A stretch of 64,000 bases of DNA from Marmoricola sp. (GCA_036676945.1 JAKFBZ010000027.1:1601-65600); one strand, 5' to 3'; counted from the first letter of the stretch, positions 26,940-31,353 are shown. Made by a program: numbers and translations. Notes: generated from the sequence alone by a model not told the origin.

Positions 26940-28955
26940 ATGAGTTTCACCGTCGGCACCACGATGCGCGCCAGCACCGCCGGCTGGGCGGACCTGCTCG
27001 GCCCGCCGAGTGCGGAGAAAGCCCGCTCACGGCGGCTGGCCCACCTGGGCGGTGTCGCCGCCCTCACGGCCCTGGCCGGGTACATCACCTGGCGGCTCGC
27101 CTTCACCCTGCCCGCGGGCGGCCCGAACGCCGTCGCGGCGCTCATCCTGGTCGGCTTCGAGGCGATCCCCCTCATCGGCATGGGCTTCCGGCTGGTGACC
27201 CTGTGGAACATCGACTCCGCAGCGCCGGCGCCGGTCACCGAGGCACCGGGCGGCATGCGGGTCGCTGTCCTCATTCCGACCTATGACGAGCCCGCGGAGG
27301 TCATCGCCCCGACCATCGCCGCCGCCTGCGCACTCGAGCCCGCCCACGAGACCTGGGTGCTCGACGACGGGGAGCGCCCCTGGGTGGAGGAGATCTGCCG
27401 GGTGTACGGCGCCCGCTACGTCTGCCGGCCGGTCCACGACCACGCGAAGGCGGGCAACCTCAACCACGCGCTCGAACTGATGGAGGCCGAGGCTGCCGCA
27501 GGCGCCCCGGCCGTCGATCTCGTCGGCGTGCTGGACTGCGACCACGTTCCGCTGCCCGGTTTCCTCACCTCGACGCTCGGTTGGTTCGAGGACCCCGAGA
27601 TCGCCCTGGTGCAGGGGTCGCAGAGCTTCTACAACGCCGGCGCCTTCGACGACGACGGCGTCAACGGCGAACAGGGGCTGTTCTTCAACGTCCTGATGGC
27701 GGCGCGCAACCGGCCCGACGCCGGCCCCTTCTGGTGCGGTTCGACGGCCGTGCTGCGGACCCGGGCGCTCCGCGAGATCGGCGGCGTCGCGACCGACACC
27801 ATCGTCGAGGACATGCACACGACACTCGGCCTGCTCCGGACCGGGTGGCGCACGGCGTACCACCACCAGACCCTGGCCGTCGGCCTTGCCCCGTCCACCG
27901 CCGAGCAGTACCTCCTGCAACGGCGCCGCTGGGGCCTGGGAGCGATGCAGGTGCTGACCCGGGAGAAGCTCTGGGCGGCGAAGCGGTGGATGTCGTGGCG
28001 CAACTACTACGAGTACCTGACCGGGACGTTGTGGTGGCTCGAGGGCGCCGCCACCGTCCTCGTCCTGGCCGTGCCGGTCGTGCTCCTGGTCACCGGCGCA
28101 CAGACCTCCACCGCGCCGCCGCTGACCTTCACCGCGATCTTCGCCACGACGTTCGCCGTCCGGCTGTGGGGCGCCAAGCGCTTCTACCGCCATCAGCTCA
28201 GCTGGTCCAATGCGCTCGCGCTGCGGATCCTGAGGATCCCGGTCGGCCTGTCGTGCCTGTGGTGGCTGCTGACCCGCCGGACCCTAGAGTTCCAGGTCAC
28301 TCCGAAGGAAGGCACCGCGGAACGGACCCGGAGCAGGGTGCCGCGGGTCCTCGGCGTCCTGCTGGTCACTCTGGCGGCGATCGTCGCCTACAGCGCTGCC
28401 GGCCTGGCCGGAGTCGTTCCCTGGCGTGCGTCGCCCTCGGCCACGGTGGCCTCAGGGATCTGGTTGCTGATCGCCACGACCACGGTCGCCCTCGGGATGC
28501 GCCGGATCCGCGCTGCCGAGTTCGCCTCGTCGCGCCGCAACGCACACCGGTTCGCCGTCCAGGCCGTCGTCGCCGTCGAAGGCGTGGACGCAGAGCTGGT
28601 CGACATCTCGGTCGGCGGCCTTCGCGTCCGCCTCCCGGAGGACGCTGTGCCCGGCGGAGGCCTCGTCCATGTCGAACTGCCGGGAGCCGAACCGGTGAAG
28701 CTCGCGCTGGTGCGTTCCGGCACGGATGCCCGGATCTCCGACCGCCTGGTCTCGCTCCGGGTCGTCCAGGGCGACTGGGCAGCGATGCGGACCCTGTCGC
28801 AGTGGTTGTTCCACACGCCGGCCGGCGCGGTGACGAACCTGCCGTACGGCGTCCCGGCGGCTGCCTCCACGCAGCCCGCACCGAGTCTGTCGGTCCGGCA
28901 GGGCCGAGCCGCCTCCGCTCGCGTGCGGACCCGGGTAGCGGCCCTCCATGCCTGA
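26940..28955 (+). CDS. BcsA/cellulose-synthase-like GT2 with C-terminal PilZ domain
   Basis: TYDE, LDDG, HAKAGNLN, LDCDH, FWCGS, EDMHT, QRRRW catalytic motifs; PilZ RNAHR…DISVGG. Confidence 0.88.
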   Translation: MSFTVGTTMRASTAGWADLLGPPSAEKARSRRLAHLGGVAALTALAGYITWRLAFTLPAGGPNAVAALILVGFEAIPLIGMGFRLVTLWNIDSAAPAPVTEAPGGMRVAVLIPTYDEPAEVIAPTIAAACALEPAHETWVLDDGERPWVEEICRVYGARYVCRPVHDHAKAGNLNHALELMEAEAAAGAPAVDLVGVLDCDHVPLPGFLTSTLGWFEDPEIALVQGSQSFYNAGAFDDDGVNGEQGLFFNVLMAARNRPDAGPFWCGSTAVLRTRALREIGGVATDTIVEDMHTTLGLLRTGWRTAYHHQTLAVGLAPSTAEQYLLQRRRWGLGAMQVLTREKLWAAKRWMSWRNYYEYLTGTLWWLEGAATVLVLAVPVVLLVTGAQTSTAPPLTFTAIFATTFAVRLWGAKRFYRHQLSWSNALALRILRIPVGLSCLWWLLTRRTLEFQVTPKEGTAERTRSRVPRVLGVLLVTLAAIVAYSAAGLAGVVPWRASPSATVASGIWLLIATTTVALGMRRIRAAEFASSRRNAHRFAVQAVVAVEGVDAELVDISVGGLRVRLPEDAVPGGGLVHVELPGAEPVKLALVRSGTDARISDRLVSLRVVQGDWAAMRTLSQWLFHTPAGAVTNLPYGVPAAASTQPAPSLSVRQGRAASARVRTRVAALHA

Positions 28956-31353
28956 GGCCGCCGCTCCGACAACACGGCTGTCACTGACCTACCTCGCGGT
29001 CGTCAGTGCCGCGACCATCGCGTCACAGGGGTTGCCGGCACCCGAGCTCGTCAGGGACCTCGTCTACAGCGCCATCTCGGTCTCGGTCGTGATCGCGATC
29101 ATCGTCGGAGCCCGCCGCTGGCAGCCGCGCATGAAGGGCGCGTGGTACCTGATGGCGGTGGGCCAGTGCCTCTGGGTGATCGCCGACACGAGCTTCAACT
29201 GGCAGCAGGACGTCCTGCACGTCACCGCCTTCCCGACCTATTCGGACTTCTTCTACCTCCTCGGCTATCCCGTCTTCGCAGTCAGCCTGGCCATGCTGGC
29301 CAGGAGCCGCAGCCTGTCGGGTCGCAGTCTCGGACCACTGCTGGACAGCGCCACGGTCACAGCAGGTCTCAGCCTGCTGTCCTGGGTTCTGCTCGCCCGG
29401 CCGACGATCGAGGTCGCCGGCCAGTCGACGGCGGCGGCGATCGTGAGCGCGGCGTACCCGATCATGGACATCCTGCTGATCGGTGCGCTTGTCCGGTTGA
29501 TCAGCTCGACCGACGGCCGCCCTCCGGCGTTCCGGTACCTGCTCGGCGCTCTGGCGCTGCTGATCGCGGCCGACACCCTGTCGGTCGCGTTCGACCTGTT
29601 CGCCACGAACACCGTCTACTCGGTGGAGTACCTCTGGCTGTTCTCGTACGCGTTCTGGGGAGCCGCGGTCCTGCACCCGTCCATGGCGAAACTGTCCGAG
29701 CCGGGAGTCAGTCCCGACGTGCGGTTCCGCGGGTACCGGCTGTTGTCGGTGGTCCTGGCCACGATGATGGCGCCGGCGATCCTGGCACTGCAGCAGATCA
29801 CCGGGACGCACATCGACGTCTGGGCAGTCGTCATCGGCTCCGTCGTGATGTTCGTACTCGTCGTGGTCCGGATGTCGCTCGCGATCGATCAGATCGCCTC
29901 GGTGCATCACGCCCTCGAGGGACTCCAGGACGATCTCGCCCTCCAGGCCAGGCATGACGCGCTGACCGGCCTGGCCAACCGCACCCAGATGCTGCGGCTG
30001 GTCGCCGGCGCGCTGGGTCGCACCCGTCGGCGAAAAGGAACGATCGGCCTCCTCTTCATCGACCTGGACGGGTTCAAGGAGGTCAACGACAACCACGGGC
30101 ACCGGGCCGGCGACGAGGTGCTGCGCGAGGTCGCCCGACGCATGGTCGACACGATCCGGACCGGCGACTTCGTGGGCCGCCTCGGCGGTGACGAGTTCCT
30201 GGTCGGGATCGAGGACGTCTCGCACGAGGCCGACACCACGACGCTCGCCAACCGACTGATCGCCGCCGTCTCCCGTCCGATCCAGATCGACGAGAACTCC
30301 ACCGTGCAGGTCGGCGCCAGCGTGGGCATCGCCATCGGACGCGGTGGCGAGACCGACGTCGAGACGCTGCTGCACGAAGCCGACCTGGCGACGTACCGGG
30401 CCAAGGCCGCGGGACGCGGCTGCGTCGAGTTGTTCGACAGCACGGCGCGGGCGGCCCTCAAGGAGCAGAACGCGACGGAACGCGCGCTGACCAGCGCGAT
30501 CGCCAATGACGAGCTCGAGTTGCACTACCAGCCGATCGTGAACCTGCGGACCGGACTGATCGACTGCTACGAAGCGCTGGTGCGCTGGAACCGGCCCGGC
30601 TGGGGACTGCTCCCGCCATCGGAGTTCCTGGCCGTCGCGGAGTCCTCGGACCTGATCAACGACCTGGACGTCTGGGTGCTCCATGCGGCCATCGACCAGC
30701 TCTCCCGTTGGAACGACGAACGCGGGGACCGCGAGATCCAGGTCGCGGTGAACGTGTCGGCCCGGCACGTCAGCCGCCAGCGGATCCGCACTGACATCGA
30801 CGCCGCCCTCCTGCTCGCCGATGTCGATCCCGGACAGATCGTTGTCGAGGTCACCGAGACCGCTCTCATGGACGGCAGCGCCGCGGCCGCCAACCTCCAG
30901 GCCCTGCGTGAAGCCGGGCTCGTGGTCAGCCTCGACGACTTCGGCACCGGATACCAGTCGAGTACCCAGCTGTCCCGCCTGCCGATCGACATCGTCAAGA
31001 TCGACCGCGAGTTCGTCGACCCGCACTCGAAGGCGACCCGCAGCCTGCTGGAGCTGATGGTCAAGGCGGCGCACGCTTTCGGCGTGACCGTCGTGGCCGA
31101 GGGTGTGGAGACCGAGGACCAGCTGGAGCTGGTGCGGGAGCTGGACTGCGGCTACGCACAGGGCTACTTCTTCGGCCGCCCCGTCCCTGCGGATCAACTG
31201 ACCCGGATCGGCAGGCGAGCCGAGGCTCTCAGTCAGAGTGCCGAGGGACCGCCCTCGAGCAACGTCTTGAACCCGTCCTCGTCGAGGACCGTGACGCCGA
31301 GCTCCTCGGCCTTGTCCGCCTTGGAACCCGCGTTGTCGCCGACCACGACGTAG
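28948..31353 (+). CDS. Membrane-bound diguanylate cyclase/phosphodiesterase (TM-GGDEF-EAL)
   Basis: About nine TM segments; [23 protein letters not shown]-site, RLGGDEF, YEALVRW, DDFGTGY, KIDREF, EGVET. Confidence 0.92.

Follow-up and report, generated by a model that had tools for sequence, protein, structure and literature searches.

Polysaccharide synthases of the BcsA type that are gated by a PilZ domain and served by a local cyclase and phosphodiesterase are an established concept in signalling by c-di-GMP (cyclic dimeric guanosine monophosphate), and so are exopolysaccharide (EPS) clusters of Gram-positive bacteria that include c-di-GMP genes. The actinobacterial c-di-GMP effectors studied so far are mainly regulators of transcription and of sigma factors, e.g. 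BldD and RsiG. Searching the literature, we found no description of an actinobacterial, PilZ-gated polysaccharide synthase that joins a glycosyltransferase family 2 (GT2) domain to a PilZ domain, or of an operon of a synthase with a GGDEF-EAL gene; an actinobacterial GT2-PilZ synthase also goes unmentioned in reviews that cover cellulose secretion and PilZ domains. Here we describe a candidate for such a system, a pair of overlapping genes for a BcsA-like synthase and a membrane sensor-GGDEF-EAL protein, in a stretch of 64,000 nt from Marmoricola sp. (GCA_036676945.1, JAKFBZ010000027.1:1601-65600; the whole stretch is hereafter called the window).

In Streptomyces, the synthase CslA, which is not known to have a PilZ domain, is dependent on GlxA, a copper oxidase, and its gene lies in a cluster with that of the hydrolase CslZ. 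The receptor of the pss system in Listeria monocytogenes is PssE, a degenerate GGDEF protein. CslA has been reported to work together with GlxA and CslZ (PMC8892547). For the gts system of Lactobacillus acidophilus, the receptor is PdeB, a separate degenerate EAL protein, and an extra membrane subunit, GtsA, has been proposed (PMC6123363). In E. coli, a dedicated local cyclase and phosphodiesterase, DgcC and PdeK, act on cellulose synthase (cited in PMC13232838). The N-terminal helix of BcsA coils with BcsB, and RiGT2 of Romboutsia ilealis forms a mixed-linkage glucan and works without BcsB in yeast (PMC10374906). RmdB of Streptomyces venezuelae, in which eight transmembrane helices precede GGDEF and EAL domains, acts in vivo as a phosphodiesterase and does not need its GGDEF motif (PMC13232838).

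The synthase gene of the window (26940-28955, + strand) encodes a BcsA-like processive GT2 synthase of 671 amino acids (aa) with a C-terminal PilZ domain, as judged from sequence, structural model and Foldseek search. The gene that follows (28948-31353, +) encodes a membrane sensor-GGDEF-EAL protein of 801 aa, recognized by Pfam and motifs. Both open reading frames (ORFs) are real: the GC content at third codon positions (GC3) is of the coding type (0.91) in this genome of 70% GC, and an independent gene caller, run on metagenome contigs, returned identical calls of 671 and 801 aa. The end of the synthase gene and the beginning of the signalling gene overlap by the 8 nt ATGCCTGA (28948-28955, +), which suggests translational coupling of the two genes. 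We favour, with moderate confidence, the reading that the two genes belong to a single operon, whose product is an exopolysaccharide synthase gated by c-di-GMP. The identities of the domains, their motifs, the similarity in fold, the operon-like arrangement and the recurrent linkage with cyclase and phosphodiesterase functions carry this reading; it is weakest as to which polymer is made and as to whether a partner is encoded elsewhere.

Employing Pfam, we matched the synthase to the GT2 models PF13632 (1.5e-18), PF13641 (9.5e-17) and PF00535 (2e-13). The nearest solved proteins were BcsA of E. coli (5e-50) and of R. sphaeroides (5e-42); the next one, an archaeal mannosyltransferase, followed at 5e-5. 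The cytoplasmic GT2 catalytic domain occupies approximately residues 105-345 (27252-27974, +), as delimited by Pfam, motifs and invariance among 18 homologues. In this domain we located LDDG (141-144), HAKAGN (168-173), DCDH (199-202), FWCGS (264-268), VED (289-291) and QRRRW (327-331), so that the GT-A catalytic signature D, D, D, Q(Q/R)xRW is present; it is also invariant in the family. In an alignment of the 18 sequences (61-77% identity), nearly all residues of the catalytic, gating-loop and PilZ motifs proved invariant. The initial annotation had described a BcsA-like synthase with all catalytic motifs; the motifs were indeed found, but the one known as TED reads VED in the window synthase, with the catalytic Asp kept, and is TED in the Arthrobacter relatives.

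An AlphaFold2 model of the synthase (predicted local distance difference test, pLDDT, 76; predicted template modelling score, pTM, 0.79) showed, in order, membrane helices 28-56 and 61-90, the GT domain, interface helices, membrane helices 353-385 and 394-415, two paired amphipathic helices (422-445), the gating loop, membrane helices 467-489 and 499-524, and the PilZ domain. The modelled protein has six membrane helices, two on the N-terminal and four on the C-terminal side of the GT domain, compared with eight in BcsA. The first two membrane helices of BcsA are absent from the model, and the HMMER alignment starts at BcsA residue 60/72. When the model was searched with Foldseek, eight BcsA chains ranked first (E 3e-26 to 2e-22; template modelling score, TM, ~0.60-0.65), among them 9b8v_E (E 2.9e-26, TM 0.65) and 4p00_A (1e-24, TM 0.64); plant CesA reached a TM of ~0.48 and hyaluronan synthases ~0.3. 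Identity between the synthase and BcsA in the structural alignment was 22-24%. As modelled, the overall fold is BcsA-like, including the channel helices, the interface helices and the gating loop. A motif search placed the last of these at FQVTPK (residues 451-456; 28290-28307, +), which matches the FxVTxK gating loop of BcsA. V453, T454, P455 and K456 do not vary within the family alignment, and in the model the loop lies between the interface helix 433-445 and the membrane helix 467-489.

The most likely product, predicted from the sequence, is a beta-glucan made from uridine diphosphate glucose (UDP-glucose), with cellulose as the best guess. The best family match was the NCBIfam CelA model TIGR03030 (274.9 bits), far ahead of PgaC/IcaA (52 bits) and NodC (23.5 bits), and family proteins are already annotated as 'cellulose synthase (UDP-forming)' or 'glycosyltransferase family 2'. 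The same regulation could serve another product, such as a mixed-linkage (1,3;1,4)-beta-glucan, a curdlan-type beta-1,3-glucan or another hexose polymer, and we hold this to be possible, if on the unlikely side. The scores of the synthase are below the NCBIfam equivalog cut-offs for cellulose synthase (274.9 versus 699.1 bits for TIGR03030, 191.4 versus 992 for NF008558), and the low identity to BcsA in the structural alignment and the change from TED to VED in the sub-clade of the window point the same way. RiGT2 shares these motifs, has a PilZ domain and forms a mixed-linkage glucan, although its authors remark that cellulose would fit their model of it equally well (PMC10374906). On the other hand, cellulose synthase was the closest match by every measure of sequence and fold that we used, many family members also match PF03552, the plant-type cellulose synthase model of Pfam, and HAKAGN, FxCGS, QRxRW and FxVTxK are as in BcsA.

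The PilZ domain comprises residues 532-624 (28533-28811, +) and bears the motifs RRxxxR and DxSxxG, here RRNAHR (532-537) and DISVGG (555-560). Its match to PF07238 scored 24.1 bits, versus a cut-off of 22.5. In the model, it consists of a beta-barrel (538-607) and a helix (613-624). S531, R532, R533, R537, D555, S557, G559 and G560 are invariant in the 18 sequences, and the c-di-GMP-binding motifs are invariant also at loci where the synthase stands alone. The PilZ domain had been called intact on the basis of RxxxR and DxSxxG, and the family alignment upholds this.

In the signalling protein, the GGDEF domain (residues 334-491; 29947-30420, +; Pfam 2e-41) contains GGDEF at 413-417 and the I-site RTGD at 404-407, five residues before it, which is the canonical spacing. 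The EAL domain (residues 512-745; 30481-31182, +; Pfam 3e-69) has the complete catalytic set: EALVR (542-546), N602, EVTE (634-637), DDFGTGY (663-669), K684, EGVE (718-721) and Q738. The intact GGDEF, RxxD I-site and EAL motifs claimed for this gene, and its 8-nt overlap with the synthase gene, were all confirmed. Judged by these motifs, the protein is predicted to be a bifunctional diguanylate cyclase/phosphodiesterase. Its best NCBIfam matches are phosphodiesterase families (DibA, PRK10060), all below their cut-offs. Its last ~45 residues form a low-complexity Ser/Pro/Thr tail, antisense to the BRCT region of ligA.

The presumed signal input of this protein is an N-terminal membrane domain of ten helices (28948-29883, +), delimited on an AlphaFold2 model (pLDDT 78.5, pTM 0.75) in which the first ~310 residues form ten membrane helices and a stalk helix. 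AYPxxD and HPSM are its conserved polar motifs. The domain belongs to no Pfam family, the best match being MASE3 at E 0.024, and a Foldseek search of the PDB gave no fold match below E 0.1. A word-indexed search with the domain gave 13 matches. In an exhaustive HMMER search, the domain was found in 4,990 representative clusters (2,136 at E<=1e-10), always at the N-terminus. Sampling of 75 top matches showed GGDEF in 52, EAL in 29 and histidine-kinase domains in ~12. The fusions seen were to GGDEF, GGDEF-EAL, PAS-GGDEF-EAL, histidine kinases and an HD domain (including L037, 9908-10870, and P0134-P0283); the hosts are Actinomycetota and also Chloroflexota and Vicinamibacteria genomes. It is a widespread, undescribed input domain.

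The neighbourhood of the synthase was surveyed in one genome per GTDB species. At least 535 species encode a relative of the synthase, and the best 80 loci were analysed, with neighbours typed by domain queries from the window and from one Arthrobacter locus. In 48 of the 80 loci, belonging to several actinobacterial orders, a c-di-GMP enzyme gene, or a kinase relay to a REC-GGDEF cyclase, lies directly beside the synthase gene. A GGDEF or EAL gene is located within 1 kb of it in 35 loci, and in 13 loci a REC-GGDEF cyclase is accompanied by a hybrid histidine kinase that has the membrane domain of the signalling protein; at 3 loci a c-di-GMP gene is found 1-8 kb away, and at 29 (9 with a short flank) none stands beside the synthase. 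Among the 35, the downstream gene on the same strand encodes a transmembrane (TM)-GGDEF-EAL protein in 21, an EAL-only gene is downstream in 6, and upstream GGDEF, REC-GGDEF or GGDEF-EAL genes are among the arrangements at the remaining ones. The arrangement of the window occurs in Marmoricola, Nocardioides, Microlunatus, Friedmanniella, Micropruina and Nostocoides; one Ilumatobacteraceae genome has the pair in reversed order, and loci with a downstream EAL-only gene sometimes have a kinase and a REC-GGDEF gene divergent upstream (L040, L042). The relay kinase has the Pfam architecture membrane domain-PAS-HisKA-HATPase-REC-REC-Hpt, and its membrane domain matches that of the window (blastp 1e-10). 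It is encoded directly downstream of the synthase in 12 of the 13 loci and divergently upstream in the other.

Spacing is tight. Measured from the synthase stop codon to the first residue aligned in the downstream gene, the distance at 40 linked loci is -4 to +176 nt (median 29), and many Arthrobacter loci show a 4-nt overlap between the synthase gene and the downstream gene. Actinobacterial genomes typically contain a handful to a few dozen GGDEF/EAL genes. Because these genes are so few per genome, adjacency in ~60% of loci is far above chance: the pair of synthase and c-di-GMP gene is not a chance neighbourhood. As to its conservation, which a neighbourhood survey had been suggested to check, linkage held in 48 of the 80 loci and failed in the 29 with no c-di-GMP gene; the pairing is frequent but not obligatory.

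Some loci deserve separate mention. In eight Arthrobacter kinase/REC-GGDEF loci (L022, L028, L030, L037, L048, L050, L053 and L068; ~3650-5170, -), the opposite strand carries a HAMP-GGDEF-EAL gene ~3 kb upstream, separated by DUF6314 and NUDIX genes, which makes a larger c-di-GMP island around the synthase. Several synthase matches (L054, L057, L071, L077) came from Acidimicrobiia (Ilumatobacteraceae, Acidimicrobiales), so the synthase family reaches beyond the class Actinomycetes. L080 (NZ_JAQGJT010000216.1) is binned as 'Tardiphaga' (Alphaproteobacteria) and is 60% identical to the actinobacterial family; it is probably a mis-binned contig.

We compared the motifs of 23 synthase-linked TM-GGDEF-EAL genes. 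The GGDEF motif and the Arg and Asp of the I-site are kept in all 23. The EAL residues are intact in 10 (the window, L001-L006, L018, L054 and L075), none of which has another EAL gene nearby. In the other 13, which are more distant orthologues, the EAL domain is degenerate, and in 12 of these 13 a convergent stand-alone EAL gene comes directly after (L024, L033, L046, L049, L055, L058, L064, L065, L067, L070, L073 and L076; at ~12.3-13.6 kb in most of them). The separate EAL gene looks like a functional replacement of the decayed fused domain, and the degenerate EAL domain might have turned into a second c-di-GMP receptor. With an intact GGDEF domain and a fused or separate EAL domain, the locus tends to hold one maker and one breaker of c-di-GMP. 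Retention of both is what a dedicated on/off circuit would need, and supports the cyclase role. The initial annotation had the synthase's own cyclase feeding its own PilZ domain; the cyclase motifs, present in 23 of 23, agree with this, but the neighbour is predicted to be a cyclase and a phosphodiesterase in one.

The GGDEF-EAL protein may instead act mainly as a phosphodiesterase, as a local or global, RmdB-like sink that keeps the synthase off until the sensor is inhibited, with the activating c-di-GMP supplied by other cyclases. We regard this as unlikely. The fully intact EAL domain in the window and the best NCBIfam matches, to phosphodiesterase families though below cut-off, are in its favour, as is the EAL gene that is the sole adjacent c-di-GMP gene in six related loci. 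In addition, GGDEF-EAL tandems with both motifs often act in this manner, RmdB being a case (PMC13232838). However, a pure phosphodiesterase would be expected to show the opposite of what was found, namely a GGDEF motif and I-site that never vary among the 23 genes and an EAL domain that decays in 13 of them; moreover, in Arthrobacter the last gene of the module encodes a REC-GGDEF cyclase. The signalling protein may be an orthologue of RmdB, but gene context gave this no support. In S. coelicolor, rmdB (SCO5495) adjoins ligA, as the signalling gene does in the window. No Streptomyces locus was among the retrieved relatives, and the genome scan with the membrane domain turned up neither a Streptomyces locus nor a linkage to ligA. 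Adjacency to ligA was restricted to close relatives of the window (0 of 80 other loci with the membrane sensor) and is local synteny.

To look for partner genes, we scanned ~45 genes of the window with Pfam, and none of bcsB, bcsC, bcsZ, glxA or glycoside hydrolase genes was found. The layout of Bcs operons (types I-III), with bcsB adjacent or fused and usually with bcsZ and bcsC, was absent among the scanned window genes and was not conserved in the 80 related loci. Likewise, glxA (radical copper oxidase) and cslZ (endoglucanase) were absent beside the synthase among the scanned genes and were not conserved in relatives. The earlier statement that no bcsB, bcsC, bcsZ or glxA is adjacent accordingly stands, and extends to conserved neighbours in the 80 loci. 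When all ORFs of 100 aa or more from these loci were clustered all against all, no further family beyond the c-di-GMP genes was present in more than 19 of the 80. The clusters that spanned all loci were examined as hidden conserved partners and rejected, since they consisted of the synthase itself, of shadow ORFs antisense to it and of low-complexity ORFs that had been merged. Loci with a lone synthase had unrelated neighbours, including genes for a TRAP transporter, a dehydrogenase and a LacI-type regulator (GC3-based calls, Pfam).

Should the synthase need a partner from elsewhere in the genome, such as a divergent BcsB-like protein, a GlxA-type oxidase or a hydrolase, the module would not be minimal; to this we assign a low, though not negligible, likelihood. 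The visible genome amounts to 64 kb, BcsB is highly divergent in sequence (PMC7112194), and Streptomyces CslA depends on GlxA (PMC8892547). Against this, no such gene was conserved within 8 kb in the 80 loci or found among the scanned window genes, the two N-terminal helices of BcsA are missing from the modelled synthase, and both RiGT2 and plant CesA function without BcsB (PMC10374906).

The operon reading can be put as a mechanism. The synthase would be a shortened BcsA-type enzyme, composed of two membrane helices, the GT2 domain, four membrane helices with the gating loop, and the PilZ domain. It would polymerise UDP-glucose into a beta-glucan and push the chain through its own six-helix channel, and in a monoderm cell without an outer membrane it may need no helper of the BcsB, BcsC or GlxA type. 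The ten-helix domain of the second protein would read a membrane or envelope cue, and this protein would set the level of c-di-GMP, its GGDEF domain making and its EAL domain breaking the messenger. c-di-GMP, when bound by the PilZ domain, would free the FQVTPK gating loop and so turn polymerisation on. Substrate and product, binding of and activation by c-di-GMP, signalling that is local rather than through the global pool, and independence from partners are the steps that we infer.

A bolder arrangement, which we consider speculative and improbable, would have the ten-helix domain docked on the six-helix synthase in place of the BcsB anchor and helices 1-2 of BcsA. The two proteins would then be a self-regulating secretion machine that senses its own output or the envelope (nascent glucan, lipid or turgor) and feeds back by c-di-GMP within nanometres of the PilZ domain. 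If so, this would be a new polysaccharide machine typical of monoderm actinobacteria, and the kinase-fused sensor downstream of the Arthrobacter synthase would be an evolutionary trace of the contact.

Several points weigh against a c-di-GMP-gated synthase operon as we propose it. The CelA score is far under the equivalog cut-off (275 versus 699 bits), so that the product is no more than a predicted one. Glu371 of R. sphaeroides BcsA, which forms the autoinhibitory salt bridge with the first Arg of RxxxR, aligns with Ser319; relatives have Ala, Gly or Gln at this position, and a conserved Asp/Glu is found at 322, three residues, or one helical turn, later. RiGT2, which has the PilZ motifs, showed no binding of c-di-GMP in vitro and no response to it (PMC10374906). 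The 80 loci are a best-scoring subset with several close relatives among them, and the counts do not represent independent events. The lone synthase in 29 of them indicates that the signalling partner is dispensable in many lineages. Conversely, a synthase gene lies upstream in only ~7 of 80 membrane-sensor loci from other taxa, and the sensor is thus a general module that has been coupled to the synthase in some lineages. When evidence of expression was sought in sequence runs, only DNA runs from soil metagenomes were found to hold the sequence.

That the PilZ domain is merely structural, the synthase not being gated by c-di-GMP and adjacency reflecting co-regulation or a shared membrane location, is quite improbable: RiGT2 does require its PilZ domain for activity without binding c-di-GMP or being stimulated by it (PMC10374906), and in the window synthase the Pfam score is borderline and the position of Glu371 is not acidic, but both binding motifs are invariant across the family, lone-synthase loci included, and three different arrangements of c-di-GMP genes have been recruited beside the same synthase in different lineages, which would be difficult to account for if c-di-GMP were not what links them in function.

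The synthase gene is preceded by a 125-nt intergenic region (26815-26939, +), probably a promoter and 5' leader. Its GC content is 50%, compared with 70% for the genome, and a ribosome-binding site, GGGGAGGG, lies 6 nt 5' of the synthase ATG. A scan of the leader for the sigma-70 consensus gave no match, and a promoter and terminator scan of 25000-33500 gave matches no more numerous than in shuffled sequence. A c-di-GMP riboswitch or other RNA in the leader was considered and rejected, since Rfam returned no match (the window at the gathering threshold, 26700-27050 at E<=1). In the equivalent leaders of L002-L006 (~7850-7990), there are GGAC-N4-GTCC palindromes, sometimes two, and a conserved box, CCCCATGCTG, ~35 nt before the synthase start; the window has the box without the palindrome. 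This region of palindrome and box may be an operator for some regulator.

The window has a GC content of ~70% throughout and resembles the core chromosome of a soil actinobacterium; the nearest named relatives of its proteins are from Marmoricola and Nocardioides (75-81% identity). Local gene order was derived from GC3-based gene calling and Pfam, with gatA and gatC assigned by position and size. Upstream of the operon lie gatB (21801-23291, -), gatA (23288-24787, -), gatC (24826-25101, -), a gene for an NAD-dependent epimerase/dehydratase (25216-26268, -; Pfam) and a DinB/mycothiol-S-transferase (DinB/MST) gene (26317-26814, +; Pfam). The epimerase/dehydratase is of the sugar-nucleotide type, and its gene is divergent from the synthase gene ~0.7 kb away; it could bear on the sugar donor, and ORF clustering showed that it is not conserved beside the synthase in the more distant of the 80 loci. 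Downstream, ligA (31233-33320/33398, -; gene call, Pfam) is convergent to the signalling gene, and their 3' ends overlap by 121 nt (31233-31353), as they do in close relatives. An alpha/beta hydrolase gene is also among the neighbours (Pfam).

Farther away, ~4 kb from the operon, two adjacent giant genes (35105-38506, -, and 38539-42375, -) encode proteins of 1,133 and 1,278 aa with 7-8 bacterial Ig-like Big_3_5 repeats each (Pfam E 2e-127 and 1.5e-118); they look like tandem paralogues for surface or adhesin-type proteins. The region 48465-55239 (+) begins with genes for an extracytoplasmic function (ECF) sigma factor (SigK-like) and an RskA-type anti-sigma factor, continues with an amine-oxidase/DUF1365 fusion, a pair of genes for cyclopropane-fatty-acid-synthase-like methyltransferases and one for DUF1295, and looks like a membrane-lipid modification cluster with its own sigma/anti-sigma pair. 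ORFs supported by GC3 and without a Pfam family were found at 19790-21460 (-), 8845-9828 (-) and 2118-2900 (+); one such ORF, of 556 aa, directly adjoins gatB.

The synthase family would provide the Actinobacteria with a candidate PilZ-type c-di-GMP effector that has an obvious input pathway. Its hosts include Nocardioides, Marmoricola, Microlunatus, Arthrobacter and Promicromonospora, and a practical bearing on soil aggregation and on biofilm formation by abundant soil actinobacteria can be envisaged. A naturally minimal BcsA, with six helices and no BcsB nearby, would lend itself to reconstitution and to studies of the contribution of BcsB. The family also offers a natural experiment in the assembly of a local second-messenger circuit, in which the cyclase is kept and the phosphodiesterase is either fused or next door, and in which Arthrobacter has re-wired the same sensor domain through a phosphorelay.

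Among the described systems, the locus has in common with RmdB a polytopic membrane domain followed by GGDEF and EAL in an actinobacterium; by description, RmdB has eight helices in ~205 residues, versus ten in ~310 for the window protein, and is a phosphodiesterase and anti-sigma antagonist with no adjacent synthase reported. With the CslA-GlxA-CslZ system of Streptomyces, it shares an actinobacterial BcsA-like synthase that functions, or in the window would function, without BcsB (PMC8892547), whereas GlxA and CslZ were neither found among the scanned window genes nor conserved in the 80 loci. The pss genes of L. monocytogenes and the gts genes of L. acidophilus likewise join Gram-positive EPS GT2 genes to cyclase and phosphodiesterase genes of their own under c-di-GMP control (PMC4125290, PMC6123363); unlike the window synthase, theirs have no fused PilZ domain. 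RiGT2 is similar as a Gram-positive, BcsB-less GT2-PilZ protein that lacks the N-terminal helix of BcsA and keeps the PilZ motifs (PMC10374906). Compared by description only, it differs in having seven predicted helices and in not being reported beside c-di-GMP enzyme genes, to which the actinobacterial synthase family is repeatedly linked. With BcsA-BcsB of R. (Cereibacter) sphaeroides and E. coli, the window synthase shares the GT2 signature D,D,D,QxxRW, HAKAGN, FxCGS, FxVTxK and the C-terminal PilZ domain, and the concept of a dedicated cyclase and phosphodiesterase at the synthase is common to both. It differs from them in having six helices instead of eight, in the absence of bcsB, bcsC and bcsZ nearby, in a score far under the equivalog level and in the autoinhibitory Glu, which is not at the aligned position; and its cyclase and phosphodiesterase are predicted to reside in a single membrane sensor protein with both functions, the gene for which lies in the presumed operon of the synthase.

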